24,000 nt of DNA from Candidatus Nomurabacteria bacterium. Lineage in GTDB: Bacteria > Patescibacteriota > Saccharimonadia > Saccharimonadales > UBA7683. Position numbers and translations under genes: made by a program. Below the pieces are notes generated by a model. That model ran no database searches, had not been told where the DNA came from, and worked only from the letters and a program-made list of their open reading frames with translations. The stretch covers positions 1 through 24,000 of the forward strand of contig JACKGR010000002.1 of NCBI GenBank assembly GCA_020631895.1. The letters are read 5' to 3'. Positions 1 to 20,122 of this stretch are shown in pieces (within the stretch, counting starts at the first letter, position 1; every line of letters starts with the position of its first letter).

Positions 1-272
1 AATCCACCAATTATTATCATGATAACCGATACTGTACCAACTACTATCGAGAAAATGTTTATGATCTTCTTGGCAAGCTCTGAAAATGATTCACCGTCTT
101 GTTCGCTACAGTCAGTTGAATCAGGATCTGCACCACCAGTACTGTTAACACCTCGACAAACATTGTTTCTGATATCTGCGTGCACTGCGGATGGCAACAA
201 TACTGCTGAAGGCGCTACGAGTAGAGCGATTGCTGCAAATGTTGTTACAAATTTTTTAATAATAGATCTCAT
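1..272 (-). CDS. VirB2/TrbC-type T4SS pilin-like protein, paralogue P0 (3' end cut by window edge)
   Basis: Absent from the ORF track because it runs off the window. Reverse-strand ATG at 272-270 translates without stops to MRSIIKKFVTTFAAIALLVAPSAVLLPSAVHA|DIRNNVCRGVNSTGGADPDSTDCSEQDGESFSELAKKIINIFSIVVGTVSVIMIIIGG. This gives a signal peptide, one Cys pair, and the start of the same hydrophobic core as the 367..825 paralogue (KKIINIFSIV.GTV.VIMIIIGG nearly identical). The + strand ORF 19..306 is its antisense shadow. Confidence 0.75.
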   Translation of the reverse strand, partial: MRSIIKKFVTTFAAIALLVAPSAVLLPSAVHADIRNNVCRGVNSTGGADPDSTDCSEQDGESFSELAKKIINIFSIVVGTVSVIMIIIGG

Positions 273-305
273 TATATTTAATTCCCTTTCATTATGTATG
301 TGCTG

Positions 306-334
306 ATTATATCGAACGTTTACGTTTACTTCAA
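306..334 (-). promoter_or_regulatory. sigma70-like promoter for pilin paralogue P0
   Basis: On the minus strand: TTGAAG (334-329), exactly 17 nt spacer, TATAAT (311-306). It lies about 34 nt upstream of the P0 ATG, with an AAGGGA Shine-Dalgarno-like element in between. Called on sequence only. Confidence 0.45.
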
Positions 335-366
335 TAGATGCACTAACTATTTAACCGATACTATTA

Positions 367-825
367 CTAAGGTGTGCCTTTTGGTGGGGTAGTTGGAGCT
401 GTTTTTGGTGGGGTAGTTGGAGTAGCTGGTGATTTTGTATCTGTATTAGATAACACAAATATAACTATAACTTGGGCGAACAACACCACTACAAGTCCAA
501 TAACCGCATACATGATTGTATCTTTAGCGGATTTTGTGGCCGAACTATCTCCTCCGGAGATGATATAGCGGAAACCACCGATTATTATCATGATTACTGC
601 GACCGTTCCGATTACAATCGAGAATATGTTTATTATTTTTTTAATTAATCTCTGAAAGTCACTTCTACCAGTCGTTGCATCATCGCAATCAGCTGTAGGG
701 TCTACAAGCTTAATACCATCACATGCATCTGTTTTAGCATCTGCATGAACAGCTACTGCCGGCACTAGACCAAGCGAACCCACTAGACCAAGTGATATTA
801 ATAACATTTTAATTTTTTGCAACAT
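367..825 (-). CDS. VirB2/TrbC-type T4SS pilin-like protein, paralogue P1, with Pro/Thr-rich C-terminal tail
   Basis: 152-aa ORF. Signal peptide (AVAVHA|DAK) and exactly one Cys pair (DAC...ADC). Two hydrophobic helices joined by a short polar loop: IINIFSIVIGTVAVIMIIIGGFRYIISGGDSSATKSAKDTIMYAVIGLVVVLFAQVIVIFVL. AAGGAG (835-840, minus strand) lies 9 nt upstream of the ATG. Tail is TKSPATPTTPPKTAPTTPPKGTP. Confidence 0.8.
   Translation of the reverse strand: MLQKIKMLLISLGLVGSLGLVPAVAVHADAKTDACDGIKLVDPTADCDDATTGRSDFQRLIKKIINIFSIVIGTVAVIMIIIGGFRYIISGGDSSATKSAKDTIMYAVIGLVVVLFAQVIVIFVLSNTDTKSPATPTTPPKTAPTTPPKGTP
379..422 (-). repeat. exact 20-nt direct repeat (period 24 nt) encoding the PTTPPK tail of P1
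   Basis: TTTTGGTGGGGTAGTTGGAG occurs at 379-398 and again at 403-422, identical and separated by 4 nt. In the coding frame this yields two P-T-T-P-P-K units. Confidence 0.8.
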
Positions 826-850
826 TTACATTATCTCCTTAATGACTACA

Positions 851-1285
851 TTATAGATTGCTTAGCACAAAAGTAATAATTGTTTGTGCAAAAACTGCCA
901 CTAACAACCCGACGACCGCATATAATATGGTGTCTTTTGCAGCTTTTATTGCCGTACCATCGCCACCAGACACAATGTATCTAAATCCACCAACCATAAT
1001 CATTATGATAGATATGGCTCCAGTGAGTAAGGTAACTGTCTGAGTTATCTTATAAAATATTGATGAAGGACCCAGGATAGGCGACGAGTCGTTATCAATA
1101 GCATCTCCGCCGCGTGGATTCTCTTGAGCATCCTTACAAAAAGGGGAATCCGCGGCCTCGATGCAAGGATCGGTCGGATTAGCAAAATCAGCTGCAGATA
1201 CCGTAGGAGCAGTTGCAAGCACAAGCTGAATTAACACAGCAAAGGCGGCTATAATAAGGATTATTTTTTTAAAAAAAGTCCTCAT
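851..1285 (-). CDS. VirB2/TrbC-type T4SS pilin-like protein, paralogue P2
   Basis: The track ORF 851..1519 is over-extended and its first 78 codons overlap P3. The internal ATG at 1285-1283 gives MRTFFKKIILIIAAFAVLIQLVLATAPTVSA|ADFANPTDPCIEAADSPFCKD... This has a signal peptide, one Cys pair, and the core GAISIIMIMVGGFRYIVSGGDGTAIKAAKDTILYAVVGLLVAVFAQTIITFVL. Confidence 0.8.
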   Translation of the reverse strand: MRTFFKKIILIIAAFAVLIQLVLATAPTVSAADFANPTDPCIEAADSPFCKDAQENPRGGDAIDNDSSPILGPSSIFYKITQTVTLLTGAISIIMIMVGGFRYIVSGGDGTAIKAAKDTILYAVVGLLVAVFAQTIITFVLSNL

Positions 1286-1287
1286 AA

Positions 1288-1698
1288 TCAAGATAAAGCT
1301 CCAAATATAAAGCTTGTGATAACAAACACTGATATACCGAGAACTAATCCAATAACTGCATACATTATTGTTTTTTTGGCAGTTGCAATGGCGTTTCCAT
1401 CTCCTCCTGATAATGCATACCTCATGCCTCCGATAACTATAAATAGTAGCGACAACATGGTCAGAGCCCCAAATGCAAGTTTTGTTAGTGTCTGAATTAT
1501 TGAAGTGTCTGATCCACAACCGTAAGTCGGGAGACCAATTACACTAGCATCAAGCAGAGCCTTATTGTTTGAGCAGGGCACTCTAGTTGCCGCTTTTGAG
1601 GCAACCGCAAAATTTGGACTAAAAATCGTTAAAAGTAACGACACAAAGACAACTAATCCAACAATTGATCCTTTACTGAACCTAAATAACTTGCTCAT
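1288..1698 (-). CDS. VirB2/TrbC-type T4SS pilin-like protein, paralogue P3
   Basis: 136 aa. Signal peptide (FAVAS|KAAT), one Cys pair (VPC...YGC), core LSLLFIVIGGMRYALSGGDGNAIATAKKTIMYAVIGLVLGISVFVITSFIF. Its start overlaps the P4 stop in ATGA (1695-1698). Its stop TGA lies 2 nt before the P2 ATG. Confidence 0.8.
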   Translation of the reverse strand: MSKLFRFSKGSIVGLVVFVSLLLTIFSPNFAVASKAATRVPCSNNKALLDASVIGLPTYGCGSDTSIIQTLTKLAFGALTMLSLLFIVIGGMRYALSGGDGNAIATAKKTIMYAVIGLVLGISVFVITSFIFGALS

Positions 1699-2048
1699 GT
1701 TACTTTAAAAACCGTTCCGATAATAAATCCAACAAGCCAGGCCGACAAAATACAAACAAACAACCCAATCAACGCATTTGTCATGGTGTTTCTGGCAGAT
1801 TTTATGGCTTCTGGTGAACCCTGGCTGGTAACCATTTTAAACGCTCCAAATATAAAAAATACGATTGATACTAAAGCGCCGATTCGGAGCAGGGCGTCAG
1901 TTATTCCAGCTAGAACCAACCATACACTACCGACCCCATATGTCTTAAAGTCAAGATTTTTACATGAACCCGGCATGTACTTATACCAACCCTCAATAGT
2001 AAAGAACGTGTTTCCGCAACTTGCCGCTAGATTTTCTAAAAATGACAT
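1695..2048 (-). CDS. divergent pilin-like two-TM protein, paralogue P4 (no recognisable signal peptide)
   Basis: 117 aa. Begins directly with a Cys-pair segment (ASC...GSC). Then a two-helix core LLRIGALVSIVFFIFGAFKMVTSQGSPEAIKSARNTMTNALIGLFVCILSAWLVGFII, with the same helix-loop(..A.K.A..T...A)-helix layout as P1-P3. An in-frame TAG at 2085-2087 and no alternative start upstream fix the ATG at 2048. Confidence 0.65.
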   Translation of the reverse strand: MSFLENLAASCGNTFFTIEGWYKYMPGSCKNLDFKTYGVGSVWLVLAGITDALLRIGALVSIVFFIFGAFKMVTSQGSPEAIKSARNTMTNALIGLFVCILSAWLVGFIIGTVFKVT

Positions 2049-2084
2049 CTTGTAAATAACTATATTATAGATACTTATTAGAGT

Positions 2085-2918
2085 CTATAGGCTAAATACG
2101 CCACCTGGAATTAGCCACTGTAGTAGGCCGAACATAAACGCATAAATAACGATTCCAATCACGACATTATATATTCTAGTTTTGGCTCCAGCGACCGCTT
2201 GAGGATTATCCTGAGCTGCAGCGTATTGTATGCCAGATATTACCAAAAAGAATACCGCCAAGATACCTAGACCTAAAGTGAACCACTTAATATATGACGA
2301 GACCCTTGCTACAAATTTTGACTTAGCTCCTGCATTATCAATATTTATAGCACCTCCTGCGCTTGTACTGTCGTCGACAGGACCCGGTGGATCAGCCCAG
2401 TCGGATTTATAATCGCTTAAGAACTGTTGCTGTATCCGTCTTACACAATCAGCATCCTGGTCATCGACAGTACCACAGTCTTCGATTATCTGCTTTAACG
2501 CATCATAGAATTTGGTACTTTTATTGGGCAAAATATAACAACCCTCTGGAACCCTAGCTTCGTCAGCCGGCGAACGGCTAGCGTCAAACCTCGGAGCGCA
2601 GAATTGCGGAATAGTAAATCCAGCAAATCTTTTTAATTCTGTTGGTTTACGGTATACAAAGCCTAGAAAAGCCTGTTTGCACTCTTCTTGTTTATCAGAA
2701 TTAGCCAATCCACACCACTGATTTGTTAAATCATCAAATTTACGTCTGCTCATTGTGCAATTATATGGTTTATCTTGACTACACCCAGACGGACCCAAAG
2801 CGTCAGCTTTTACTTCTTTTTGCATCAAAATAAATACTGACGATGTTAGTAATATGCCGAGTAATACCAACAACTTAGTCAATTTAAAAGCGTAGTGTGT
2901 TTTTCCAATTAAATTCAT
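2085..2918 (-). CDS. pilin-core protein with about 190-aa 8-Cys N-terminal ectodomain, paralogue P5
   Basis: 277 aa. N-terminal signal/anchor (LLVLLGILLTSSVFIL) followed by a soluble region with 8 Cys. C-terminal two-helix module: WFTLGLGILAVFFLVISGIQYAAAQDNPQAVAGAKTRIYNVVIGIVIYAFMFGLLQWLI, homologous in layout to P0-P4. Confidence 0.7.
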   Translation of the reverse strand: MNLIGKTHYAFKLTKLLVLLGILLTSSVFILMQKEVKADALGPSGCSQDKPYNCTMSRRKFDDLTNQWCGLANSDKQEECKQAFLGFVYRKPTELKRFAGFTIPQFCAPRFDASRSPADEARVPEGCYILPNKSTKFYDALKQIIEDCGTVDDQDADCVRRIQQQFLSDYKSDWADPPGPVDDSTSAGGAINIDNAGAKSKFVARVSSYIKWFTLGLGILAVFFLVISGIQYAAAQDNPQAVAGAKTRIYNVVIGIVIYAFMFGLLQWLIPGGVFSL

Positions 2919-3018
2919 AGTATATAGCTAACATATTATACTAAATCATTAACTCGTTAAATGGGGCCTTTTTAAATATTTGTAATCCCAGGGCTACTTG
3001 TTTACAATAAGCTTAATA
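2919..3018. promoter_or_regulatory. divergent control region between the pilin array and the T4SS-like operon
   Basis: 100-bp AT-rich gap between divergently oriented gene sets. Minus-strand TATAAT (2940-2935) lies 16 nt upstream of the P5 ATG with no good -35. Plus-strand candidate is TTAAAT (2957-2962)-N18-TGTAAT (2981-2986). A 6-bp inverted repeat AGTATA/TATACT sits at 2919-2924 and 2937-2942. Promoter function is not demonstrable from sequence. Confidence 0.35.
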
Positions 3019-5955
3019 ATGAATAGTAAAAAACTAAGATCTGGTGGCAGACAAAAGGGTACTTTGATTAGATTAATTGTACTTGTTGTTGTTTTATTTA
3101 ACTCACTTTTAAGCGGATCTTTAATTAAGCCATCACCAGCTCAGGCCGCCAGTGGGTTTAGCTCTCAACTAAATTTTAGTGATCCACCGTTTGACACTTC
3201 GGATGAATACGGGATTTGGGTAGACCGAGCGAGAATAATGATATATCAAAGCAGTACCCCAATCACTGACGACATAGAGGATGGTGACCTTGGCGGACAA
3301 AAATTTGAGGCTGATCCTAACGAGGGACTCAACGGAGGCACAGTAGAATATATTTCTGGATGCCAAAGTCTTACAGTAACCTTTGATAATGCAGAGGATA
3401 ATCCGGACAGCGGTCAACTGACTAAGTGTGACGGGACGCCAGTGGGCGTAACATTGTTAAACAAAGATTATGCCACTATAGACGGCTACATAAGTGAAGA
3501 CTCAGAAAAAATCGATATGGTTAGATACGTTAATGGCATTAACGGGTGCGGTACGTTTGATACGGGTGGTAACTTAAGTGGAGATTATAAAAGTGACGGT
3601 ACTTTTGAAAAGGACGGCTCAGTATGGAAACTAACTGGTAATACATCGGCTGTAGTTTATGACTACAACAGCAATGGTAGCAATAGGGCTGGCCGTGCAA
3701 AGCAGAAGAAGACATCTAGCTGTAACTCAATCGGTAGAGTAACGCCATCTGCACTTGTTGCGGCGGGAATCGTAATTACCGGCGGCAGCAACGCTACAAT
3801 TTCGTATGCGGGTGGCAGTAGCGGAGGAAGACCGGTAAATATTCTGAAAGGCTTTAACCGTGGCCAAGTAACGAGCGCTGTAGAAAATAAAATAGATAAT
3901 TACAATGCCATTAGAGGCAGGATTTCGCGTCTCACTCAATATTTTCAAGACAGTTCAGCCGGCCAAGCTGCTATTACAAAATGTAAAAACGACACAGGTA
4001 CGACGGGCGATAGGGCAGCAATCGTCCAATATTTAGCACAGAACAATCAGGCAGGGCTAAACCCATTCACAGACTGTATGCTACGCGAGTTAGAGGGAGA
4101 TCAAGACTTTGAAGACGCTCTAAACTTCAATTACTCAGGTAATTTTGATACCGATATAATTGCAGACACAAGTGAGAACTGTGGTTCTGCTGGTCCACCA
4201 ATAATCGGTCCGATGGCATGCTGGGCAGTTGAATATGTTTATGATGCGCTCTTTGCAGGCTTTAAGGCCGTAATAGATTATTTTGCGTCTCCGTCAGACA
4301 TGTTCACGGATCAAAATAGCACACTTGAGCAATCGATGAAGAACCTAAGGGACTTTGCCAATATTATATTTGTGCTAGCTTTTCTGGTTGTTGTTTTTCA
4401 GTATATGACCAACATTAGCGTAGTCGATGCCTACTTTATCAAAAAGTTTATACCGCGACTTGTTATTGCTGTTGTTTTGGTACAGGCGGCGTTCTTTATA
4501 ACGTCAGAATTGAATGCCTTTTTCTATGATCTTGGTAACAGTGTTCAGACAATAGTTTTTCAGGGCTCATCGCCAGGCGAACTTGCAGTTACAAATGGTG
4601 CCGCAACGATAGCATTGGTCTACGCTTTGGCCCTTGGGCCTGCACTTTTGGGGTTAGTCTTGGTGCTAGGCATAATCATGCTTCTGGTGCTTCTTGTCAC
4701 GATTATTGTTTTATCAATCAGATACGTCTTGATAATTGTACTGGCAATTTTAGCGCCACTGGCATTTGCGGCGCTGGCAATACCCCAGCTCGAGGGTATG
4801 ACAAAAAAGTGGTTCTCTATGTATATAAAACTGCTGTTAATGTATCCAATAATAATGTTCTTTATCGCTGCATCGGCGGTTGTAGCAGGAGCAATTAGTG
4901 GAGGTGGCACAATAATGGCGTTTCTCAGTTTAGTTGTCGCATTCTTACCATTTATAATTTTACCGTTTACGTTTAAATTTGCCGGCGGAATCATGGGTAC
5001 AGTAACAGCAAAGCTTGGCAGTCTGGCCAAAAAGGGCGCCAAGATGGGATACAATCAAGGCAGGAAAGCCTACGACAACTCCTACACAGGCATGAAACGA
5101 GCCAAAGAGAAAGAAGTTAAGAAGGGAATTAAAGCCGACAGAGCAAGCACCGCAGCAGCAGGCACCTTTATGAGAAAAGTAGATGGTATGAGCCCAGCAA
5201 GGAGACGGCGATTATTTGGGAGTGACCAAGAAAAATATATGGGCATTCTTCAAGATAGAGAAACAAAGCGACTTAAAGAGGAGGCAGAAAGCGAACTTGC
5301 AACCAAACTTAGGACCGCTCCTGACCAAAAAGCAAAAGTTAAGATAATGGATACGCATTACAGAGAAGCTATGGCTAGGCGCGACTATCACGCCGCCGGT
5401 GCCGCCTACGACCAACTTGTCGGGGCCAAGGCACACGATGAACTTGCAGCCATTCAGGCTGACGCTGTTAGTGGAGTAGATTCTTCTGTAGGCACTTCTA
5501 CCAGCGGGGCTGTATGGGGTGACGCCGGAAGAGCGGCATATAACAAACAACAGGGAGACAACTTTAGTAAACTTGGTGAGTTTGGTGCCCACCTTCGTGG
5601 CGATGTAAGCGCAACAACGAACCTTGATACTCACCGAGCAGAGAACCTTAGGAATTTGAGTGCAGATGAGTTAGCCATTGCGCCCGCAAAAACATGGGAA
5701 GCATTCCATGCAGTTGCCCCTACCGAGGCTACAGAAAGATGGGTTAACATACACGCTGCAGGCGGAAGCCCGGCGACCAAATTAAAACCAGAAGCCAAGG
5801 CTATATTGGCAACAGATCCTAATGTTATCGCAACGATGAATGAATCAGATGCTGATATAGCCGCGAGATTAGCCGGAATCCCTCTAGGTTCAAGGACCGC
5901 TGCTATAGATGCAGCTAAAGCTCAACGAGATAAATACAAAGCAGCATTCTCATAG
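3019..5955 (+). CDS. extended VirB6/TrbL/PrgH-like polytopic T4SS membrane protein
   Basis: The track ORF starts at TTG 2998. The first ATG, at 3019, gives MNSKKLRSGGRQKG + h-region + AQA|AS. An ectodomain of about 400 aa carries 8 Cys. It is followed by at least 5-6 long hydrophobic segments: ANIIFVLAFLVVVFQY, LVIAVVLVQAAFFI, LGLVLVLGIIMLLVLLVTIIVLSI, VLIIVLAILAPLAFAALAI, LLLMYPIIMFFIAASAVVAGAI, MAFLSLVVAFLPFIILPF. The C-terminus is a Cys-free K/R/A/E-rich tail of about 300 aa. The assignment rests on topology and on its position directly 5' of the PrgI-like and VirB4 genes, not on a recognised signature. Confidence 0.55.
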   Translation: MNSKKLRSGGRQKGTLIRLIVLVVVLFNSLLSGSLIKPSPAQAASGFSSQLNFSDPPFDTSDEYGIWVDRARIMIYQSSTPITDDIEDGDLGGQKFEADPNEGLNGGTVEYISGCQSLTVTFDNAEDNPDSGQLTKCDGTPVGVTLLNKDYATIDGYISEDSEKIDMVRYVNGINGCGTFDTGGNLSGDYKSDGTFEKDGSVWKLTGNTSAVVYDYNSNGSNRAGRAKQKKTSSCNSIGRVTPSALVAAGIVITGGSNATISYAGGSSGGRPVNILKGFNRGQVTSAVENKIDNYNAIRGRISRLTQYFQDSSAGQAAITKCKNDTGTTGDRAAIVQYLAQNNQAGLNPFTDCMLRELEGDQDFEDALNFNYSGNFDTDIIADTSENCGSAGPPIIGPMACWAVEYVYDALFAGFKAVIDYFASPSDMFTDQNSTLEQSMKNLRDFANIIFVLAFLVVVFQYMTNISVVDAYFIKKFIPRLVIAVVLVQAAFFITSELNAFFYDLGNSVQTIVFQGSSPGELAVTNGAATIALVYALALGPALLGLVLVLGIIMLLVLLVTIIVLSIRYVLIIVLAILAPLAFAALAIPQLEGMTKKWFSMYIKLLLMYPIIMFFIAASAVVAGAISGGGTIMAFLSLVVAFLPFIILPFTFKFAGGIMGTVTAKLGSLAKKGAKMGYNQGRKAYDNSYTGMKRAKEKEVKKGIKADRASTAAAGTFMRKVDGMSPARRRRLFGSDQEKYMGILQDRETKRLKEEAESELATKLRTAPDQKAKVKIMDTHYREAMARRDYHAAGAAYDQLVGAKAHDELAAIQADAVSGVDSSVGTSTSGAVWGDAGRAAYNKQQGDNFSKLGEFGAHLRGDVSATTNLDTHRAENLRNLSADELAIAPAKTWEAFHAVAPTEATERWVNIHAAGGSPATKLKPEAKAILATDPNVIATMNESDADIAARLAGIPLGSRTAAIDAAKAQRDKYKAAFS

Positions 5956-5961
5956 GTTTTT

Positions 5962-6858
5962 ATGGCGACACACAAAGTACCCCAAGACGTAGAGACAGAA
6001 GATAAGATAATTGGCTTTTTAAGCCTTAAACAGTTCATCTTTGTGGTTGTTGGCATCGGCTTTGGTTGGCTGACTTTCTTCTTTGCTACTAGAGTCAACG
6101 TGATTCTTGCACTCATTTGGATTCCTTTTACTGTCGTACCGTTAGTCCTTGGACTCTACCAACGTAAAGACCAGCCGGTAGAAGTGTTTTTGGCATCGGC
6201 ACTTAGGTTTTATTTTAAACCTCGTAAGAGAAAATGGGATCAAGAGGGCTATGAGGAGAGAGTACTAGTGACCGCACCACCAAAAGTTGAGCATCACTAT
6301 ACCAAAGACTTCTCTGGTGAGGAAGCCATGAGCCGATTGACAAGGTTATCTCGAATGATGGATTCACGTGGTTGGGCAAGTAAGCTCAGTGGTGAGTGGC
6401 AAAATCCACAGTTGGCAGCTGCGGCTACGTCTGACGCACGACTCGTTCAGCCGGCTAATTTAGCCACAAATGATTCCGGTTACTTACAAACCTATATGCA
6501 GCCAACTGATGTCATGGACGAGCAAACCAGCGTAGTTGCAAAGGACTTTCAATACAAAATTGACGCAACTGACACTAGTGCCCAGGTAGGTGCTATGAAG
6601 ACCATGGATGCAGCCAGAGCAACTAGTGATAACCCCGCACCACATGTAGAAAAGTATCCCGATATGAGACAATCGGTGGTAAAGCCAATTACAGCTGATA
6701 CTATTACAAGCTCCGCTCCTGACCCTGTGGCACCACCAGTAGTTCAAGATGATGCAACTGAGCCAGAAAACGATGTCCAGCAGCCTATTAAGTCCTCAAC
6801 CTACGAGCCAAAAGTTCAAAAATCAGACGATGGCTCAGTCGAAATCTCCCTCCATTAA
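5962..6858 (+). CDS. PrgI/TcpE (VirB3-like) family membrane protein with long low-complexity C-terminus
   Basis: 298 aa. The N-terminus MATHKVPQDVETEDKIIGFLSLKQFIFVVVGIGFGWLTFFF...ILALIWIPFTVVPLVLGLY shows the VP.D....EDKI.G....Q lead-in plus two TM helices typical of PrgI-family proteins in Gram-positive conjugation loci. It lies upstream of VirB4. The remaining 190 aa or so are acidic, P/T/S-rich and probably disordered. Confidence 0.6.
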   Translation: MATHKVPQDVETEDKIIGFLSLKQFIFVVVGIGFGWLTFFFATRVNVILALIWIPFTVVPLVLGLYQRKDQPVEVFLASALRFYFKPRKRKWDQEGYEERVLVTAPPKVEHHYTKDFSGEEAMSRLTRLSRMMDSRGWASKLSGEWQNPQLAAAATSDARLVQPANLATNDSGYLQTYMQPTDVMDEQTSVVAKDFQYKIDATDTSAQVGAMKTMDAARATSDNPAPHVEKYPDMRQSVVKPITADTITSSAPDPVAPPVVQDDATEPENDVQQPIKSSTYEPKVQKSDDGSVEISLH

Positions 6859-6869
6859 ATTAGGTGGTA

Positions 6870-7057
6870 GGGAATAGGTAGTGGGTGGTAGGGATTATAA
6901 GAGAGCAGATGAGAGGCAAAGAATAGCAGGTAAACATATTTGTCATTCCTGCCCGAGTTTATACTCGACTCGATCGGGTACAGAAATGATGGGAATCTCC
7001 CATATTCTGTTTCCCTCACTCCAAAACCCTACTACCTAGTACCTAAAACCTATTGCC
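6870..7057 (+). repeat. long imperfect inverted repeat / candidate structured RNA inside the operon
   Basis: 6870-6893 pairs with 7027-7041 plus 7049-7057, leaving a 7-nt bulge at 7042-7048. 22 of 24 positions pair, counting two G-U pairs that exist only in the + strand transcript. Inner arms (6943-6957 vs 6969-6989) pair partially. The 11-nt direct repeat GGTGGTAGGGA occurs at 6863-6873 and 6884-6894. No ORF of 60 aa or more lies in 6859-7141. Confidence 0.5.
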
Positions 7058-7141
7058 TGCGCCCCCGGGCGCTATACTTGCGTAGCAGGGGTAGTCCATG
7101 TCATACTCTTTAGGTAATTAGGGTGTGGCTCTATTAATTTT

Positions 7142-9921: not shown

Positions 9922-9941
9922 TGGTATACTAAGCGGTATAT

Positions 9942-12900
9942 ATGGACGACGACAAAGGCTCAAGTACAGATCTGTTAGAAAGACCAGATTCTGATGATGC
10001 TGGTCCTTCTTTAGGCGACAGAGCGTCGGGTATTGGTGACGGTGTTAGATCAGCAGCAGACTCAGCAAAAAAGGTTATCGGAAAAGCGTCAGGTGGCAGT
10101 GGTGATGGTCTAGGAAGTTCACTAGCTGGTGGCCTTAGTAGTCTAGCTGGACATGGAAGCGCGGGTAATAGTATTGATGGAATAAAGCCAAAGTTGCCAG
10201 GAGTTGCAGGTGGCGATGGGGCTGATAAAACTCCAGGCATGTTTAAGGGTCTCGAGGGTGGAGCAAACCCTGCTAACAAAAACGATACAAGTGGCGATTC
10301 CGAAAACCCCAGTGCCAAAGATTTTGCCAGGAAGGCCGGTAAAAATGCTAGTCAGAAAGTAGAACAAGCTGCAAAAGACATCGCTCAAACTGCCAAAGAG
10401 GTCAAGCATGCCGCTACTGCGGTTGCCACTCTTGGTGCAAACGCTTTAGATGATGCGGAGCTGGCTAAAGATCTTGCGCAAGCAGCCTTGCACCCGATAC
10501 AAACCGCTAAACGTTATGGACGGGTTGCTCTATATCTAATCGGCTTCTTTTTTATTCAGACTTTTATTGTCTTTGCGGCAATTGGTGTTATCTTCTTTGG
10601 AATATACAAGGTTTATCTAATGACAATGGATATTGTAAACATAAATCCTACAGATGTAGTGACAGAGCTCCGCGTAGAAAACGAGATGGCAAGTTGGCTA
10701 ATATCCTCAGTTGGTGATTTGGCATATCAGCGTGATATAGCAGCCCAAAGACAGCCTGGAGTGGCCGTCGCACAAAATCGACCTAACTTGCCCGAGCCGC
10801 AAAGTAGCCCAGAAACTTCAAAAATGTTCCAGACTTGGGATAATGCAGGTCTTGCTGCAAAATTTATGGATGAATACCACGCAAGATTTGAACCATCTAA
10901 TGGATCTGCAGCAGGAGATAGCACTAATCCAGGAAATTGGGATCTTATTGTCGGTAATAAAAATTTTGGCAACGTTAACGGTACAAAAGCTCGGGCATTT
11001 ATCTCAATATTTGCCGACCACACAACACACTGGAGAGATATCTACACCAGAGAGGCACTACAAGGCGTAGCGACAAACTCATTTGATACCCAATCGTTTA
11101 AACTTAATTTGCCTGATCCAGAATACAATATAGGAAACAGCAGAGTTAATACAACAAAACAACTCGTCAGCAGCACGGCCAAACCGATAACCAGTAAGTC
11201 TATCACCTATTACAATTGTTTAATTGCGGGAGGTGATAGCTGTAACTCCTTAGGATTAGGATCAACTGGCTCACCAACAAACGTATCGACCGATGCCTCT
11301 GGTGGTATAGTTTCAACAATAATTAGTAACTTAAGAAACGATATTAGAACCAGAGTTCTACAAAACACAGTCGGTGTTGAACAAATTGGTCAATATGCTA
11401 GTAGCACTGCCGAACAAGTTACACCCGAGACCAGCACATATGACACCAAACGAATCCTATCAGCTAATATCAGAACAGGGTCATCAGACACAATTTTATC
11501 CAACCTTCCTAAAGATGCCAACGGAGCCCCTAAAAATAGCGCCCTGCTAGATCTTTATGATAGATATAGAGAATCTGTAAATAATGATAACTTCTCAAGA
11601 GTAAACTATGATAGAGAATCTCGACAGAGTGTTGCTCTAGCGGAGAACTACTTCGTTGCCGGGGGACAACTTGTAAATAACGAGATGGGTTTACTAGATA
11701 GCTGGGCACTAACCGAGAATCTAAGTATTGTTACACAGTCACCATTGTTTAGACGGGCGGTTATCGGCAACCCAATCGGGGTCTTTGCAGAGGACGAGGC
11801 AGATGATGGAGTAAGGTCGTGCCAAAAGATATATAATGATCTATCACCTGTAGGAGACATATCGGACAACCTAGATCGCGACACTACAAACAACTCTTGC
11901 TTCAGGCTTGCACTAGTTCCTGATAAGGCCACTGTTTTGAGCGATAGATCAGCAAATAGAATTTATAACATACTTGAGGAGAAAAATGAGGAAGTTAATA
12001 AATCCAACGGAGTGTTTAGTGTTGGTGATGCACTAAATGCCGCTTTGCAAAGATACAATAACCGAGAGATAAGATCATCTCCACTAGCGACTGAGAGCAT
12101 TAAGGTGGCTCAAGATTTAAGTCCAGATTTTGATGGATATACAAATAATGTTTATGGAGTATCTAAGACAGGTGCTGAAATCAACGGTGATGCTTACGAT
12201 AGTATGAGGCTGGCTGCCGAAGCTCTTTGGACCAAGGCATTGATCGACGATCAAGTTGGTATTGGCGCCAGCTACCAAACCGATGAACAGACAGCAGAAG
12301 TTATGCGTTATGCCCAGAAAATTGATCGCGAGAAGATGGCATTTAAACCTCTGGGGGAACGATTGTTCTCACTTAAGGATTCTAAATCACTAACGGCAAA
12401 GCTTGCCATGATGACGCCAACCAACAAAAAAGATGGGTTAAAGAGCACACTAGCCCTGTTAAAGCCGAGTAACCTTACATCTGCCGTAGCTAGTCGAATG
12501 GTGCCATCAACTTTTGCCCAGGACACAGCCCCAGTTAATCCCCTAAATGCTATCAGAACTGGATATGCACTGGATGATCCATCAAACAGAATGTCAGGTG
12601 ATCAAATTTGGCAACAATATAGCTGCGACTCTGGCGGTCCGACTCAATCAGAGTCTCAACCAAATGGAGTTCCCTTTAATATAGCTACAAATACAAACCC
12701 CTGTAAACGTGAGGCTGTGCTCTCAAGAATCACCACCTGTTACTTTGATACAGAGGATAGTTGCTCTATGGTTGGTAGTGGGTCTACACCAACGCCAGCA
12801 GCAACAACCAGTGGTACCGTTGGAGACATTGGCGAGAGCTCTGATAGCGTACCGTGTGCTGAAGGATCAAATGACATCGGTAATGTAGAATCTCGATACG

Positions 12901-13388
12901 CGGGGTCACTCAGAAAAGATATTCCTCTTATTATTAAGTTGTGTCAGGTACCTGATATTGGAGGACGTGGCAATGATACTAGTGGTAACAATATCGAGGG
13001 TGGAATTGTTGTAAACTCTCGAGTATCCGGTGCCTGGGTGGCTCTCGGTAGAGCAGCCAAATCAGCCTCACCAGCTATCAATCTAACTGGTAGTTCATTC
13101 AGACTAGCCGACTCCTGCGGCGGGGGAGGCGACGGATCGCTTTGCGCCCGACCAGGCACATCTATGCATCAGCTTGGTATTGCGGTAGATTTTAGCGATA
13201 TGGGGTCCAGTGGTGGTAGTACATCAAGTTGTAGTGGCAGAAAAGGTGCTCGAGGTGATCCAAGATGGGATTGGTTATTTAGCAATGCCCAGAACTACGG
13301 AATCAAACAGTATTCCTACGAACCATGGCATTGGGACACAAACCCAGGAGCAAATAGATGTGACAGTTCGTCACCGGCGGTATACTAA
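9942..13388 (+). CDS. bitopic T4SS-associated protein with C-terminal VanY/M15-type (LAS) peptidoglycan peptidase domain
   Basis: 1148 aa. The N-terminal 195 aa or so are G/S/D/A-rich and Cys-free. One TM segment follows (VALYLIGFFFIQTFIVFAAIGVIFFGIY). The ectodomain of about 900 aa has 14 Cys. The C-terminus SFRLADSC...ARPGTSMHQLGIAVDFS...NAQNYGIKQYSYEPWHWD carries the VanY-type H-x6-D and E-x-W-H zinc motifs. Confidence 0.75.
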   Translation: MDDDKGSSTDLLERPDSDDAGPSLGDRASGIGDGVRSAADSAKKVIGKASGGSGDGLGSSLAGGLSSLAGHGSAGNSIDGIKPKLPGVAGGDGADKTPGMFKGLEGGANPANKNDTSGDSENPSAKDFARKAGKNASQKVEQAAKDIAQTAKEVKHAATAVATLGANALDDAELAKDLAQAALHPIQTAKRYGRVALYLIGFFFIQTFIVFAAIGVIFFGIYKVYLMTMDIVNINPTDVVTELRVENEMASWLISSVGDLAYQRDIAAQRQPGVAVAQNRPNLPEPQSSPETSKMFQTWDNAGLAAKFMDEYHARFEPSNGSAAGDSTNPGNWDLIVGNKNFGNVNGTKARAFISIFADHTTHWRDIYTREALQGVATNSFDTQSFKLNLPDPEYNIGNSRVNTTKQLVSSTAKPITSKSITYYNCLIAGGDSCNSLGLGSTGSPTNVSTDASGGIVSTIISNLRNDIRTRVLQNTVGVEQIGQYASSTAEQVTPETSTYDTKRILSANIRTGSSDTILSNLPKDANGAPKNSALLDLYDRYRESVNNDNFSRVNYDRESRQSVALAENYFVAGGQLVNNEMGLLDSWALTENLSIVTQSPLFRRAVIGNPIGVFAEDEADDGVRSCQKIYNDLSPVGDISDNLDRDTTNNSCFRLALVPDKATVLSDRSANRIYNILEEKNEEVNKSNGVFSVGDALNAALQRYNNREIRSSPLATESIKVAQDLSPDFDGYTNNVYGVSKTGAEINGDAYDSMRLAAEALWTKALIDDQVGIGASYQTDEQTAEVMRYAQKIDREKMAFKPLGERLFSLKDSKSLTAKLAMMTPTNKKDGLKSTLALLKPSNLTSAVASRMVPSTFAQDTAPVNPLNAIRTGYALDDPSNRMSGDQIWQQYSCDSGGPTQSESQPNGVPFNIATNTNPCKREAVLSRITTCYFDTEDSCSMVGSGSTPTPAATTSGTVGDIGESSDSVPCAEGSNDIGNVESRYAGSLRKDIPLIIKLCQVPDIGGRGNDTSGNNIEGGIVVNSRVSGAWVALGRAAKSASPAINLTGSSFRLADSCGGGGDGSLCARPGTSMHQLGIAVDFSDMGSSGGSTSSCSGRKGARGDPRWDWLFSNAQNYGIKQYSYEPWHWDTNPGANRCDSSSPAVY

Positions 13389-15796
13389 TGAGTAATATGA
13401 AAATGAGAATAAAAAGAGCCTTCAAACTAGCATTTCAGATTTCTGCCTTGGTCTTATTTATACTATTTAGTCTAAATACACCACCTGCTGACGTAATCAG
13501 TCCGGTGGCTCGGGCAATATCAGAGTGTGACAAATTTGCGATCGATAAAGGCTCAATACTAGCCGACAACGAACTATGTCAACCATGTACCGACAATACC
13601 GATAATGCCATATCTAAGAAGGTGTTTGTAATAGGTGATTCGCTTACTAAGGCCATGAGGGATGATGGTCAAATGCAAGCTAAACTTGAGAGCAGAAACT
13701 TTGAGGTTACAAAGATAGAGGGGAATAATGGATTTAATATAAATGATTCACTTCCATTAATCGATTCCGATGCAAACGAAATTAGCCAGGCTGATATTGT
13801 GGTTATAGGTCTTGGTACAAATCCTGAACCAAATTTTGGGCAGAAGGTACCCGAAATGATAACCAAAGTAAAACAGAAGGCACCAAATGCTCAGATATTT
13901 TGGACAAACGTTCATGTTCAACCAGGCGCGTATATCGACCCTTCATTTTTAGGTAATAATAGAATAAATCAAATTTTAGAGACCAAAAGCCAGTCAGAAG
14001 GCTTTACAGTAATCGATTGGGACAAAGAGGTGACCGACAATCCTAACCCTTACCCTTTTCTAGGAGACGGCGTGCATCACACTCCTGAGGGTTCGGTTGC
14101 AAGATCAGATTTTATTGCAAGTGCGCTTCCACAATCTGAAGATCCTTCTGAGCCAAGTGGCACGGGATCTACACAAGAGTTAGCCTCTCAAATGATCAGC
14201 AACGGCAATATTACCTACTGGGAGAATAATGGCGTAAACACAAGAGATGTAGTTGTTGCTCTGTCAGAAGGGAGAAAAGCGTTTACCACCTCTAATGATC
14301 CACTCGCCGTAGAGAATCGCGAGGTAGACATCAATCCAAACATTCTAAGCTTTATATTAGAAGCTGCTAAAACTGGTCCTATAATGGTAAACGCGCTTAC
14401 TGATAAAGATCACTCATCAAACTCAAACCACTATAAAGGCAAAGCAGTGGATCTACAAAACAGCGGCCCAAACACTCAAGCAGTATCTGTATACGATGCC
14501 GCTGCGCAAAAGTTTGGAGGCGTCAGAAACAGCGAGACCACTCACTGGCACTATGACTTCACCTCTGACGCAACAGCCATCCCTGTCGGGAATAATAACG
14601 ACACAGCTAATCCCTCATGCTGTTCAAACTCTGGTGGAACAGGCACTTTAACAGGTGCTAATAATGAGGAGAAGATATTTAACTACCTGTCATCCGGTAA
14701 AGGAATAAATGCCATACAGGCAGCTGGAATAATGGGTAACATGAAGATGGAGTCCAGTTTTAACCCAACAGCTCTAGAATCTGGTGGTACCGGAAGAGGC
14801 TTGGTTCAGTGGTCATTTGGTAGAAGAACCAATCTAGAGACTGCCGCCACTGCTGCAAATGTTGACCTCTCTATAGACGATGATGCCAATATATTATTCC
14901 AGCTCGACTATATGATTAATGAATCAAAAGGCCGAGATTCTATTACCTTCGATGGCGTTAAAGAATGGGACGGTTTAGCCAGAACTACCCGGGTTGATAC
15001 ATTTGATGAGACCCAGGGATCAACAATCTACTGGGAGGCTAACTTTGAGAGACCAAAAAATCCCGGTCAAAAATCTAGAATCGACGCTGCTATAGACATA
15101 ATGACTCGACTTGGAGGCGGTGGTGGTGGAGGAGGGGGTGTTGTTACTCAAGTATCTACAACAACTCAGTCCAACTGCCCAGGAGCAGGCTCAAGTATGG
15201 TATGCGAAGGGAACGGTACGGTACCACTACCAGACGGTATTGATATAACATTCTTTAATTCCCACAACCACCACCAATCAGTCAGTTACCCTGGAGGATC
15301 TAATAGACACAGACCACTTCTTGGAAACTTTGGTGCTTACGGAACTGAAAGTGTAACCAAAAACGGCCCAGGAACCGGCGAAGCTGTAGATGTTGGTGCC
15401 CCACCGGGAACAGCCGTACTAGCTCCCGTAGATGGTAAAGTCACCTATTCTGACGGCGTAAGTGGTCGTGGAGATTCTGATAAAGCTGTAGTCATCGAAT
15501 CTACTAATAAAAAATGTGCTGCAACTTTAGCGCACATGCAACCGACAGTATCAGAAGGGGATATGGTAACTGCAGGTCAAGAGATTGGCACGCTTACAAA
15601 TATGGCCAACTCACACCTTCACTTCGAACTTTGGGTTGATGGCGAGCCAATAAATATTGGTCCGGACAGCAGTCCGTGTGGATTAGGTGAGGATCCTTGT
15701 GATAACTTCTCAGACGAAGCCGAGCAAATATGGAATAAACAAAAAGAGGCGTTAACTAATTCAGCAGCAGGAGCATCAGATGTTATATCACTTTAA
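13388..15796 (+). CDS. secreted four-module cell-wall hydrolase: SGNH/GDSL esterase + LAS (M15-like) peptidase + tail-lysozyme-like domain + M23-like peptidase
   Basis: 802 aa with an N-terminal signal/anchor (FQISALVLFILFSL).
- SGNH blocks: VFVIGDSLT, VVIGLGTN, DGVHHTPEG.
- LAS motifs: SNHYKGKAVD (H-x6-D) and THWHYD (H-x-H).
- Lysozyme-like: AIQAAGIMGNMKMESSFNPTALESGGTGRGLVQWSFGRRTNLE.
- Gly9 linker.
- M23-like: PPGTAVLAPVDGKV...ATLAHMQPTVSEGDMVTAGQEIGTLTNMANSHLHFELWVDGEPIN. The usual first H of the HxxxD motif is not evident (GEAVD).
The start overlaps the previous stop in TAATG (13386-13390). ATGs at 13397 and 13403 are alternative starts. Confidence 0.8.
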   Translation: MSNMKMRIKRAFKLAFQISALVLFILFSLNTPPADVISPVARAISECDKFAIDKGSILADNELCQPCTDNTDNAISKKVFVIGDSLTKAMRDDGQMQAKLESRNFEVTKIEGNNGFNINDSLPLIDSDANEISQADIVVIGLGTNPEPNFGQKVPEMITKVKQKAPNAQIFWTNVHVQPGAYIDPSFLGNNRINQILETKSQSEGFTVIDWDKEVTDNPNPYPFLGDGVHHTPEGSVARSDFIASALPQSEDPSEPSGTGSTQELASQMISNGNITYWENNGVNTRDVVVALSEGRKAFTTSNDPLAVENREVDINPNILSFILEAAKTGPIMVNALTDKDHSSNSNHYKGKAVDLQNSGPNTQAVSVYDAAAQKFGGVRNSETTHWHYDFTSDATAIPVGNNNDTANPSCCSNSGGTGTLTGANNEEKIFNYLSSGKGINAIQAAGIMGNMKMESSFNPTALESGGTGRGLVQWSFGRRTNLETAATAANVDLSIDDDANILFQLDYMINESKGRDSITFDGVKEWDGLARTTRVDTFDETQGSTIYWEANFERPKNPGQKSRIDAAIDIMTRLGGGGGGGGGVVTQVSTTTQSNCPGAGSSMVCEGNGTVPLPDGIDITFFNSHNHHQSVSYPGGSNRHRPLLGNFGAYGTESVTKNGPGTGEAVDVGAPPGTAVLAPVDGKVTYSDGVSGRGDSDKAVVIESTNKKCAATLAHMQPTVSEGDMVTAGQEIGTLTNMANSHLHFELWVDGEPINIGPDSSPCGLGEDPCDNFSDEAEQIWNKQKEALTNSAAGASDVISL

Positions 15797-17384
15797 TAGA
15801 TTCTTAAACTTCATTCGTACGCACAAAATTTTAAGTATAGTGTCTGTTATATCTTTGTTTTTAGTAATATTATTGTCTCAGTTTGGTTTTATTGAGGTAA
15901 ATATAAAACAAGACAATCTAAAATCTGATACTAAAGTAAAATTACTAAATCAAAAAACATCTAAAACTACCTCTAAAAAAACTAACACCTCCTCAATTAA
16001 AAAACTTGTAAGAAGGGGTACTTACGAGGTATCGGTTTTTAACAAAGCAGGTACGAGTTTTAATATTAAGTCAGTTGGCGGATTTCTAAGAACAACCAAG
16101 TTGTCGGCAAATCTAAAATCAGAGAACTATAGCGAGTTTATCGGTTACAACCCTAAAGCCTGTGTAAACTACAATAAAATTGTAGCAGTATCCTGGGGTT
16201 GCACAAGTGATACAAGCGTATTTACAATTCATCACCCAGCTATTGGTCTTCAGCCCACCTACAATGAATCCGGTCCCAGGGTATTAACTGGCAGACCAAT
16301 ACAAAACCAATCCTCCAGTAATAACGGAGAATATGAGGAAACTGCAGATGAATTAAGTGGAACAATTGAGGGGATTTTTGAATCTAATGGTTCTAATTAC
16401 ATGCTAATTAGAGAGGTTGGCTATGGGGGATCAGACTATCAACATGTTATCTACAGTTTAAATGGTAGTTATCAAATTGGCAAAAGAACCGTTGTGTCTG
16501 GTTTGGATTCCAAAAAACTATACAAGATAGAGGGAATGGGTAATGGATTCTTGATTTATGATACGTCTATGACAGATTTTTATAGATATGACACAGTTGA
16601 GTCTAAACCTAAAAAAGTTAGTTTTAATTCACCAGCAAACGATCAGATTAAGCCAAGCCTTGTTAAAGTGTCTGGTTCAAAAATTTTTATATTATATTCA
16701 AACTATATTAAAGATGGAGAGACAGACATAGCTACAAAAGATTTAATAAACACGGTAGTTACTGTTGACTCAAACTCAAACAACTCACAATCGTTTGATG
16801 GTATGTATGTAGATCAATTCAGTACATGTGGAAACGGATTTTGTATTCTATCAAATGGCACACTAAAAATTTATGGACTAGTTAAAAACAAACCAAAATA
16901 TTTATACGAGATAAAACAAGTTAATACAATCATTAATGTTGGTAAGGTTTTATTAGTCTCAAAGCCAGACGGTACGGTTAGTCTATCGGTCGATAGCAAG
17001 TCAGGTTACTTTGGACATACAAATAACGGTCTTGAATCCTGCGGTATAGTTTATGTTCACATAGATTATTATGTTGAATGTGTGATTGATAAATATAAGA
17101 GACGATCACTACTGAGCGTTGATACAACAAAAAATAGCCAGACAAGAATAAGCAAAGTAGTTAATGATATATCAAATATTAATAACGTAACTGGTATTTC
17201 AGTCTATAAAAAATCTATCCTAATCACGCCAGATGCAGGAGAATTTACATATATTCCATCCATAAAGAGCTATGGCTACGATCCAGAAATTCAGAAGCAA
17301 TCGATATCAGATTTAAAATCATCTATAAATAAGTTAGATTTTGATTTATCTGGCTATAAAATTTATATAGTTGGTGATAACTAA
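15780..17384 (+). CDS. hypothetical N-terminally membrane-anchored protein (AT-rich orphan, last gene of the operon)
   Basis: 534 aa. AGGAG lies 6 nt upstream of the ATG, inside the preceding gene (17-nt overlap). One N-terminal TM segment (ILSIVSVISLFLVILLSQFGFI). The remainder is N/K/S/Y/I-rich with 6 Cys and no motif I recognise. Confidence 0.7.
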   Translation: MLYHFNRFLNFIRTHKILSIVSVISLFLVILLSQFGFIEVNIKQDNLKSDTKVKLLNQKTSKTTSKKTNTSSIKKLVRRGTYEVSVFNKAGTSFNIKSVGGFLRTTKLSANLKSENYSEFIGYNPKACVNYNKIVAVSWGCTSDTSVFTIHHPAIGLQPTYNESGPRVLTGRPIQNQSSSNNGEYEETADELSGTIEGIFESNGSNYMLIREVGYGGSDYQHVIYSLNGSYQIGKRTVVSGLDSKKLYKIEGMGNGFLIYDTSMTDFYRYDTVESKPKKVSFNSPANDQIKPSLVKVSGSKIFILYSNYIKDGETDIATKDLINTVVTVDSNSNNSQSFDGMYVDQFSTCGNGFCILSNGTLKIYGLVKNKPKYLYEIKQVNTIINVGKVLLVSKPDGTVSLSVDSKSGYFGHTNNGLESCGIVYVHIDYYVECVIDKYKRRSLLSVDTTKNSQTRISKVVNDISNINNVTGISVYKKSILITPDAGEFTYIPSIKSYGYDPEIQKQSISDLKSSINKLDFDLSGYKIYIVGDN

Positions 17385-17388
17385 ATTA

Positions 17389-18486: not shown

Positions 18487-18754
18487 AAATTCTCCTTATT
18501 TAGACCAGACTGTTATTAATTGTCTTTTATTTTTTAAACAAATAGTAGTAATAGTAGGCACAGTGGAAACAGTGTATAAACCGGTCGACATTACCTGTTG
18601 GAAGGATGCATATTGCCTGTGGATTTGTGATAGTAAAGACGCAGATTGGATACTAGACTTACCCACACACACTAAGTTACTAAGTAGATTTTGTGGGTAA
18701 GTTAGACTTCTACACAAAGTTTTACTTGCCTTGTCAGAAGGTTGTACACATTTT
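18487..18754. other. dnaA-dnaN intergenic DnaA-box cluster with AT-rich tract (oriC candidate)
   Basis: DnaA-box-like 9-mers against the TTATCCACA consensus:
- TTACCCACA, 18659-18667, 1 mismatch.
- TGTGGGTAA, 18692-18700, 1 mismatch, inverted. These two form a perfect 10-bp inverted repeat, CTTACCCACA / TGTGGGTAAG.
- TGTGGATTT, 18618-18626, 2 mismatches.
- TTGTACACA, 18742-18750, 2 mismatches.
An AT-rich stretch spans 18511-18558. Confidence 0.55.
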
Positions 18755-20089: not shown

Positions 20090-20122
20090 GATCCTCACAT
20101 TTTCTTTGTTTATCTCCACCAA

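Follow-up and report, generated by a model that had tools for sequence, protein, structure and literature searches.

We analysed a stretch of 24,000 nucleotides from a Candidatus Nomurabacteria assembly (contig JACKGR010000002.1, positions 1-24,000; hereafter the window), which carries the genes of a presumptive type IV secretion system (T4SS). Genes were taken from a listing of open reading frames (ORFs) and assigned by profile searches against Pfam and NCBIfam. The locus consists of tandem VirB2-like pilin genes on the minus strand that diverge from a tightly packed plus-strand operon, in which a VirB6-like protein, PrgI/VirB3, a TrsD-like protein, VirB4, two giant membrane-anchored wall hydrolases and an anchored beta-rich protein of 534 amino acids (aa) are encoded in this order. 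We consider it highly probable that this is the conserved chromosomal "Patescibacteria-type" T4SS of a Saccharimonadales (Saccharibacteria/TM7) bacterium. An earlier note on this DNA, written without database searches, had proposed a T4SS-like locus with six pilin genes and an operon leading from VirB6 through PrgI and VirB4 to one PrgK-like wall hydrolase. The genes that it described are present, at the coordinates given below, and the profile searches back its pilin, PrgI and VirB4 assignments, with weaker backing for VirB6. Its gene order also holds, except that a TrsD-like ORF of 285 aa (7142-7999) had been missed and that the hydrolase proved to be two genes, followed by the gene for the 534-aa anchored protein; the pilins were correctly recognised, but there are seven of them.

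The seven pilin genes all score above the gathering cut-off of the T4SS_pilin family PF18895 (26.6 bits). Five are complete in the window, and the other two were completed on L081, a Logan contig that is 99.99% identical to window positions 1-9945 and reaches 2.2 kb further upstream (a second contig, L082, reaches 3.3 kb). P0 (1-272, minus strand; ORF 3-272) is truncated by the window start; its complete form at L081:9674-10090 encodes 138 aa and scores 47.6 bits, and the seventh gene lies outside the window at L081:10192-10611 (43.8 bits). The remaining minus-strand genes are P1 (367-825, 152 aa, 52.2 bits), P2 (851-1285, 144 aa, 37.2 bits; the true start is at MRTFFKK, and the gene call on L081 is also 144 aa), P3 (1288-1698, 136 aa, 40.9 bits), the short P4 (1695-2048, 117 aa, 42.7 bits) and the long P5 (2085-2918, 277 aa, 31.2 bits at residues 212-269). 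For the TrbC/VirB2 family PF04956 (cut-off 27.9 bits), P1 alone is above the cut-off with 29.9 bits, P2 and P0 stay below it at about 24 bits, and the remaining pilins gave no match. A profile made from the seven pilins matched no pilin sequence among the PDB sequences.

All seven proteins possess two long hydrophobic helices linked by a conserved GGFRYIxSGGD loop, and before the first helix a variable region with cysteines, which form a pair in the six shorter proteins. P1 exemplifies the architecture, with a signal peptide, the Cys pair, the two helices and a Pro/Thr-rich tail. A signal peptide was found in six of the seven, the exception being P4, which lacks an N-terminal hydrophobic segment and whose stop shares four bases with the start of P3. 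In P5, a Cys-rich extracytoplasmic domain of about 170 aa precedes the two-helix pilin module. Furthermore, two strain-level contigs (L083 and L084) are 96.5% identical to the window over positions 1-1527 (P0-P2) and about 80% identical over 1683-3107, which covers P4, P5 and the beginning of the VirB6-like gene. The corresponding proteins are 100% identical for P1 and about 78% identical for P3 and P5. These data suggest that the array is mosaic between strains, with recombination or diversifying selection acting within it.

A similar region is already known from TM7x, in which VirB4, VirB6 and PrgI genes are accompanied by an array of four to six small proteins with Sec signals and by a neighbouring GntX gene, and which is maintained across Saccharibacteria (McLean et al. 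2020, PMC7427843). That work took the small genes to encode Sec-exported toxins or effectors that the T4SS releases, following the Bordetella ptx/ptl model. The signal peptides on six of the seven proteins, the strong divergence of the paralogues (22-61% identity to the first array member), the mosaic structure between strains and the lack of a type IV coupling protein (T4CP), as in Ptl, are all in line with this proposal. Nevertheless, we regard it as very improbable for the window, as every member of the array is above the PF18895 cut-off and P1 is in addition a TrbC/VirB2 match, the two long hydrophobic helices with their conserved loop describe a membrane hairpin rather than a soluble toxin, and single-copy homologues occur in conjugation-type clusters of Streptomycetaceae (see below).

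At the center of the operon is VirB4 (7999-9921, plus strand, 640 aa), which reaches 382 bits against the NCBIfam family conju_CD1110 (NF045971; cut-off 325), aligning to model positions 175-733 only. It also matches PF19044 (101 bits), its closest solved structure is Thermoanaerobacter VirB4 (PDB 4ag5, E 7e-48), and its Walker A (AKSGAGKS at 266) and Walker B (LIIDE at 475) motifs are intact. The preceding TrsD-like ORF of 285 aa (7142-7999, plus strand), which shares one base with virB4, scores 31 bits against the NCBIfam TrsD family NF041427, below the family cut-off; it also aligns to positions 2-105 of the VirB4-family CD1110 model and has a precomputed PF26593 TraC-like assignment. The TrsD and CD1110 matches together suggest that the N-domain of VirB4 is encoded here as a separate, translationally coupled gene. 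PrgI/VirB3 (5962-6858, plus strand, 298 aa) matches PF12666 with 56.1 bits against a cut-off of 27. The first gene of the operon (2998-5955, plus strand) encodes a polytopic membrane protein of 985 aa that is probably an extended VirB6/TrbL-like protein, with a variable beta-rich outer domain, a conserved transmembrane (TM) core at about residues 400-670 and a variable helical cytoplasmic tail (the cytoplasmic domain has about 300 aa). The evidence for this assignment comprises precomputed PF19590 (TrbL_3) annotations on an identical protein and on 18 of 19 homologues, a weak NCBIfam match (CD3337/EF1877, 27 bits against a cut-off of 120) and a Foldseek search with an AlphaFold model (mean pLDDT 69.7), in which the top-probability PDB neighbours were TrwI/VirB6 of R388 (probability ≤0.99, TMt ≤0.44, E 0.07). 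A sequence search of the PDB with this protein gave no match.

Downstream of virB4, two large proteins with wall-hydrolase domains are encoded. The first (9942-13388, plus strand, 1148 aa) has a cytoplasmic N-terminus, a TM segment at residues 193-232, a large outer region and a C-terminal M15/VanY peptidase domain (PF02557, 29.7 bits, residues 1068-1131) with the motifs H-x6-D at 1076 and WHWD at 1129. The second (13388-15796, plus strand, 802 aa) is an anchored multi-domain envelope hydrolase that combines SGNH (PF13472, 42.7 bits), Phage_lysozyme2 (PF18013, 91.9 bits) and M23 (PF01551, 58.6 bits) domains with a possible second M15-like segment of weak motif likeness (E 0.027). When this second hydrolase was compared across 28 species, the Phage_lysozyme2 core was kept in 20 of them, and the modules around it were swapped among M23, glucosaminidase, C39-like, CHAP, VanY, Amidase_3, SGNH, SLT, GH3 and GDPD. 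Such shuffling would fit polymorphic enzymes that target a host better than a housekeeping VirB1.

The operon ends with the anchored beta-rich protein of 534 aa (15780-17384, plus strand), which has no Pfam or NCBIfam match and only six homologues among 5.8 billion proteins. Its AlphaFold2 model, built on a six-sequence alignment (mean pLDDT 65.8), contains a TM anchor, a beta-sandwich and a propeller-like region; in the PDB it resembles generic propellers only, and not the NTF2 fold, with moderate confidence. This protein is hypervariable, being barely alignable to its same-length positional equivalent in a species whose VirB4 is 89-90% identical. A gradient of conservation was seen in the two nearest species, with identities of 93% and 89% for VirB4, 80% and 66% for TrsD, 64% and 55% for PrgI, 40% and 33% for the VirB6-like protein, 33-64% for the pilins and 34-47% for the hydrolases. 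In the VirB6-like protein, conservation was seen in the TM core but not in the outer and cytoplasmic domains. Thus, the outward-facing parts of the system evolve fast while VirB4 stays 89-93% identical.

The operon genes overlap at three junctions (by 1, 1 and 17 bp) and are otherwise separated by 6-20 bp, apart from one gap of 283 bp; the overlaps and short gaps suggest translational coupling. According to the gene positions, 79 bp (2919-2997) separate the pilin array from the divergently oriented operon, and they presumably hold both promoters. A scan of positions 1-18800 was uninformative in this respect, giving 43 promoter-like and 15 terminator-like sites as compared with 42.8 and 14.4 in shuffled sequences.

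The sole long gap, between prgI and trsD, is occupied by a structured insert of 283 nt (6859-7141, plus strand). The sense-strand RNA folds with -110.9 kcal/mol (z -6.47), which none of 200 shuffles equalled, while the antisense strand gave z -2.65, and the arms are 71-80% Watson-Crick complementary. The strand asymmetry and the imperfect arms point to a structure at the RNA level. In 65 of 66 related loci, prgI and trsD are no more than 99 bp apart; the nearest relative (L001) alone has a long gap, of 435 bp (L001:7685-8119), with unrelated sequence and a strong fold of its own (z -5.47). Searches of Rfam returned nothing at the gathering or E-value threshold, no further copies were found in the window or in the compared Saccharimonadales loci, and a 17-mer scan of metagenome contigs yielded 62 matches, all of them to unrelated G-rich sequence. 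The insert is therefore lineage-specific.

A question raised by this gene set is whether the locus belongs to a mobile element. Were it an ordinary integrative and conjugative element (ICE) or conjugative island, a relaxase, a coupling protein and an integrase would be expected just beyond the window. Such a reading draws on the core (VirB6, PrgI, TrsD, VirB4 and hydrolase), which is that of monoderm conjugation systems, and on the closest Streptomycetaceae relatives, in which a T4CP and a Replic_Relax protein are encoded beside virB4. The flanks, however, tell otherwise. The earlier note had found no second Walker ATPase of the VirD4/TraG type, VirB11, relaxase, integrase or tRNA in the part that it covered, and this result extends to the 24-kb window: profile searches gave no match to relaxase, T4CP, VirB11 or integrase families, no tRNA gene is present, and a search of all window ORFs with 80 aa or more for the Walker A motif returned VirB4 and DnaA alone. 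The note had also named the DNA upstream of position 1 as the place where an ICE flank could lie. There, 3.3 kb were examined on L081 and L082. Besides the rest of P0 and the seventh pilin gene, they encode Hsp20 (in divergent orientation), a member of the ComF/GntX family and a protein of 208 aa without a Pfam match, but no relaxase, coupling protein (VirD4) or integrase. On the other side, dnaN (17389-18486, minus strand, all three DNA_pol3_beta domains matched) stands in convergent orientation 4 bp from the operon end, in agreement with the note's remark that the locus abuts dnaN, and dnaA, rpmH, rnpA and yidC come after it.

These flanks recur in dozens of species. When one genome per species was scanned, 559 loci with a VirB4 relative were obtained, and synteny was mapped on the 80 best. 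In these best 80, VirB4 is 71-93% identical to that of the window, and all belong to Saccharibacteria or metagenome-assembled genomes. The conserved order is ComF, Hsp20, pilins, VirB6-like, PrgI, TrsD, VirB4, large protein and hydrolase, continuing with one to three small or medium-sized anchored proteins and then dnaN, dnaA, rnpA and yidC. The position beside dnaN, for which a comparison of related genomes had been suggested in the note, was confirmed: among the 56 loci reaching 9.9 kb or more, all but L007, L008 and L040 (53 loci) have dnaN 5.4-8.8 kb past virB4. The pilin array is flanked by Hsp20 in 19 loci and by ComF in 14. Gene order and flanks common to dozens of Saccharimonadales species indicate a vertically inherited chromosomal locus, not an ICE. 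In Patescibacteria at large, moreover, only 15 of 109 relaxases are near virB4 (PMC12102498). The ICE reading is thus largely refuted and in our view hardly credible any more, and the flanks and the conserved synteny support the view, already taken in the earlier note, of a domesticated, non-conjugative apparatus.

The system itself has been reported before. In a survey of 3,035 genomes, Quinonero-Coronel et al. (2025, Microb Genom, PMC12102498) described a monophyletic Patescibacteria VirB4 clade nested in MPF-FATA, with TrsD, PrgI, VirB6 and arrays of 2-11 VirB2-like genes, scarce relaxases, and a location near dnaA, dnaN and rnpA. All these hallmarks are present in the window and nothing essential differs, with VirB6 the more weakly supported member; the 71-93% identity to Saccharimonadales VirB4 proteins suggests a placement inside this clade. 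In Southlakia epibionticum, SEML1_0006-0019 are essential for epibiotic growth by transposon sequencing, and the composition of this T4SS was said to be one that "most closely resembles" Gram-positive conjugative T4SSs (Wang et al. 2023, Cell, PMC10633639). SEML1_0004-0019 of strain ML1 are orthologous to the window locus, and the ComF-to-dnaA block corresponds to SEML1_0001-0021 in collinear order, gene by gene. The shared order runs from dnaA and dnaN through small anchored proteins, a lysozyme-type hydrolase, a protein of about 1100 aa with a C-terminal M15 fold, VirB4, a TrsD-like protein, PrgI and a VirB6-like protein of about 1000 aa to the divergent PF18895 pilins, Hsp20 and ComF, and neither locus holds a coupling protein or a relaxase. 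SEML1_0007, with a Hedgehog/DD-peptidase fold, occupies the same position as the 1148-aa protein.

Several differences were also seen. The window lineage has seven pilins and Southlakia six; the NTF2-like SEML1_0012, which is non-essential there (PMC10633639), and SEML1_0013, a second large polytopic protein, have no counterpart in the window. The second hydrolase combines SGNH, lysozyme and M23 domains in the window and two lysozyme-like domains with a cysteine protease in Southlakia. One propeller-like protein of 534 aa stands where Southlakia has two small PEGA/prealbumin-like proteins, and the 283-nt insert is a feature of the window and not of Southlakia. By analogy with the Southlakia orthologues, the window locus would be required for epibiotic growth, independently of ComEC.

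Compared with MPF-FATA systems (pCF10 Prg, CTn2 of the CD1110 type, pIP501 and ICEBs1), the window shares a VirB4 that passes the CD1110-family cut-off, PrgI, a probable polytopic VirB6/PrgH analogue, a TrsD-like protein and a large anchored wall hydrolase after virB4, comparable to PrgK, TraG and CwlT. In contrast, it is without a coupling protein, relaxase, oriT context, element borders or an adhesin of the PrgB kind, it adds a pilin array, and no protein of the VirB8 kind was recognised. Bordetella Ptl, Brucella VirB, Helicobacter ComB and archaeal Ced resemble the window in being driven by VirB4 with VirB2-like subunits and no T4CP; however, Ptl, VirB and ComB belong to diderms and include VirB7, VirB9 and VirB10. 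ComB and Ced also lack a relaxase, and they import DNA.

These resemblances raise the possibility that the locus encodes a machine for taking up DNA, comparable to ComB of Helicobacter or Ced of Sulfolobales, with host DNA as a nucleotide source. The VirB2/3/4/6-like set without T4CP, VirB11 or relaxase fits this idea, as do a partial match of VirB4 to CedB (50 bits), the ComF/GntX-family gene found beside the locus in the window lineage and at 14 further loci, and the expectation that the organism lacks nucleotide synthesis (PMC10633639). The Ced scores are, however, far below the cut-offs, which are 700 bits for CedB and 600 for the CedD model (matched with 20 bits). Furthermore, transformation in Southlakia needs ComEC, and a comEC deletion is viable while the T4SS is essential (PMC10633639); the flanking ComF gene, SEML1_0021, is also non-essential there. 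We therefore think DNA uptake unlikely. This ComEC-independent essentiality and the missing coupling protein at the locus also speak against conjugation.

The origin of the pilins was traced in Gram-positive clusters. Recent reviews describe Gram-positive T4SSs as being without VirB2 homologues. The VirB4 proteins of a plasmid collection that come closest (36-39% identity) are encoded on large Bacillaceae and Streptomycetaceae replicons, and four of these clusters were examined (Embleya NZ_CP108778, Streptomyces NZ_CP081497, Pontibacillus NZ_CP062975 and Priestia pFDU301A). In each of the four, a hidden Markov model (HMM) made from the seven window pilins detected a homologue immediately upstream of the gene for the VirB6-like protein. 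PF18895 scores there reach 72 bits, and the pilin regions are 7477-8389 in Pontibacillus (L085), 7520-8050 in Embleya (L086), 6874-7272 in Priestia (L087) and 5580-6020 in Streptomyces (L088). The four clusters share with the window the order pilin, VirB6-like, PrgI, (TrsD), VirB4 and hydrolase, as well as the pilin loop motif GG(F/L/V)RY(I/L)xxxGD; unlike the window, they have one or two pilin genes rather than seven and are not beside dnaN. After virB4, the Embleya and Streptomyces clusters encode a T4CP, a Replic_Relax protein and an NlpC/P60 hydrolase. The Pontibacillus cluster contains two pilin genes followed by VirB6-like, PrgI-like, TrsD-like and VirB4 genes and a 1050-aa hydrolase with M23 and NlpC/P60 domains; no T4CP annotation occurs within 12 kb. 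Pilins of this type are rare in PLSDB, where tblastn with the Embleya pilin returned three records, Embleya itself among them. With P1 as the query, tblastn against plasmids gave no match; a low-complexity filter is suspected, since the local HMM did find homologues there.

The occurrence of the same pilin type in monoderm clusters argues that the pilin was part of the monoderm ancestor and was not borrowed from a diderm T4SS. The combination of a Gram-positive core with VirB2-type pilins, as proposed in the earlier note, therefore stands, but the hybrid origin that it implied is weakened by PF18895 in monoderm clusters outside the candidate phyla radiation. As a caveat on direction, transfer may also have gone from epibionts to the host phyla. 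The T4CP and Replic_Relax genes in Streptomycetaceae argue that the Saccharibacteria version has lost or relocated its DNA-processing genes. Taking these points further, we tentatively suggest, with somewhat more doubt than conviction, that T4SS_pilin is native to a little-noticed monoderm T4SS sub-lineage, still coupled to T4CP and Replic_Relax in Streptomycetaceae, and that the Saccharibacteria machine derived from it by losing or relocating the DNA-processing module, amplifying the pilin sevenfold and recruiting polymorphic, host-aimed wall enzymes, with the insert as an added layer of control. If this were true, some classical Gram-positive bacteria would build conjugative-type pili.

The window locus has probably descended from monoderm (MPF-FATA-like) conjugation machinery, perhaps in a sub-lineage that already had a VirB2-like pilin gene, which would then have been amplified to seven divergent paralogues while two large multi-domain wall hydrolases were added. 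In T4SSs, VirB4 powers pilin extraction and pilus assembly on a VirB3/VirB6 platform, and monoderm systems need dedicated hydrolases for crossing the wall. On this basis, the Sec system would insert the pilins into the membrane as helical hairpins, and the split VirB4 (TrsD-like N-domain plus ATPase) would dock on the PrgI/VirB3 and VirB6-like platform, extract the pilins and polymerise the seven paralogues into a short pilus or tube. The anchored hydrolases would open a passage through the epibiont's own wall and probably through that of the host. The outcome would be a contact-dependent junction with the host that moves proteins or host-derived molecules and does not conjugate DNA. We consider the formation of a pilus probable, and give roughly even chances to an action of the hydrolases on the host wall. 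As to the cargo, import or exchange is a possibility that we favour tentatively, and export of effectors or hydrolases appears slightly less likely still.

A further alternative is that the locus builds an adhesive pilus only, which holds the epibiont on its host and transports nothing. According to the known geometry of VirB2 pili, N-terminal parts such as the variable, disulfide-type loops of the seven pilins and the extra domain of the one long pilin would face outwards, in line with such a role; the window also contains no coupling protein. Nevertheless, a fibre would not need two giant wall hydrolases or an extended VirB6 whose cytoplasmic domain has about 300 aa, and Saccharibacteria are described as already having two type IV pili for adhesion and motility (PMC12206443). 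Adhesion alone thus seems improbable.

Several points weigh against a chromosomal T4SS that works as a host junction. The VirB6 assignment is the weakest among the components: our own Pfam scans of the full-length protein and of its TM core (E up to 10) returned no family, in conflict with the precomputed PF19590. No match to a VirB8-like component (NTF2 fold; PrgL, TraM and TcpC type) was obtained among the locus ORFs, with no structure model made for the large middle part of the 1148-aa protein. T4CP homologues were found in 2,918 Patescibacteria genomes, mostly far from virB4 (PMC12102498), and a coupling protein elsewhere in the genome may provide a route for cytoplasmic substrates. It is also conceivable that the hydrolases breach the wall of the epibiont itself and no other, in the manner of PrgK, TcpG and CwlT. 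Moreover, no member of this system has been shown with a filament, a substrate or a direction of transport, and no later mechanistic work on the Saccharibacteria T4SS was found in the literature.

The features pointed out in the earlier note had all been published. McLean et al. 2020, Wang et al. 2023, Quinonero-Coronel et al. 2025 and a 2025 FEMS review, which names pilus formation as a possibility, state the same points, including the Gram-positive-type core, the six-pilin array, the missing coupling protein and relaxase, the position at dnaA/dnaN and the open question of the substrate. For the window lineage, the present analysis documents gene content, domain content, topology, synteny beside dnaN and non-mobile flanks, and its additions are modest: evidence for a pilin from the monoderm ancestor, the domain shuffling of the second hydrolase and an orphan structured RNA element. 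The system matters because no other T4SS is reported to be essential for its own bacterium's growth. It probably has a central part in the exploitation of hosts by ultrasmall epibionts, and may be the first pilus-forming T4SS in a monoderm.

The origin-side context of the locus was also recorded. Past dnaN lies dnaA (18755-20122, minus strand, Bac_DnaA 237 bits), upstream of which three DnaA boxes (TTWTNCACA at 20142, 20193 and 20247) cluster within 20142-20255 and are likely to be part of oriC or of the dnaA promoter. Four TTWTNCACA matches occur in the whole window, which is not above chance; what matters is their clustering. Then follow rpmH (20339-20476), rnpA, yidC and jag/KhpB. GC skew inside the window follows the coding strand and gives no origin position. 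If the origin adjoins dnaA, as gene order alone would have it, the 14.4-kb T4SS operon would be head-on to the replication fork and the pilin array co-directional with it. The fork orientation is the same in Southlakia, where genes 0004-0013 are opposite to dnaA and dnaN. No recF follows dnaN in the window, whereas Southlakia has recF at this place. A mazEF pair lies just past the genes of the origin region; its MazF/PemK toxin gene (22398-22757) and its MazE-like antitoxin gene (22726-22980) overlap.

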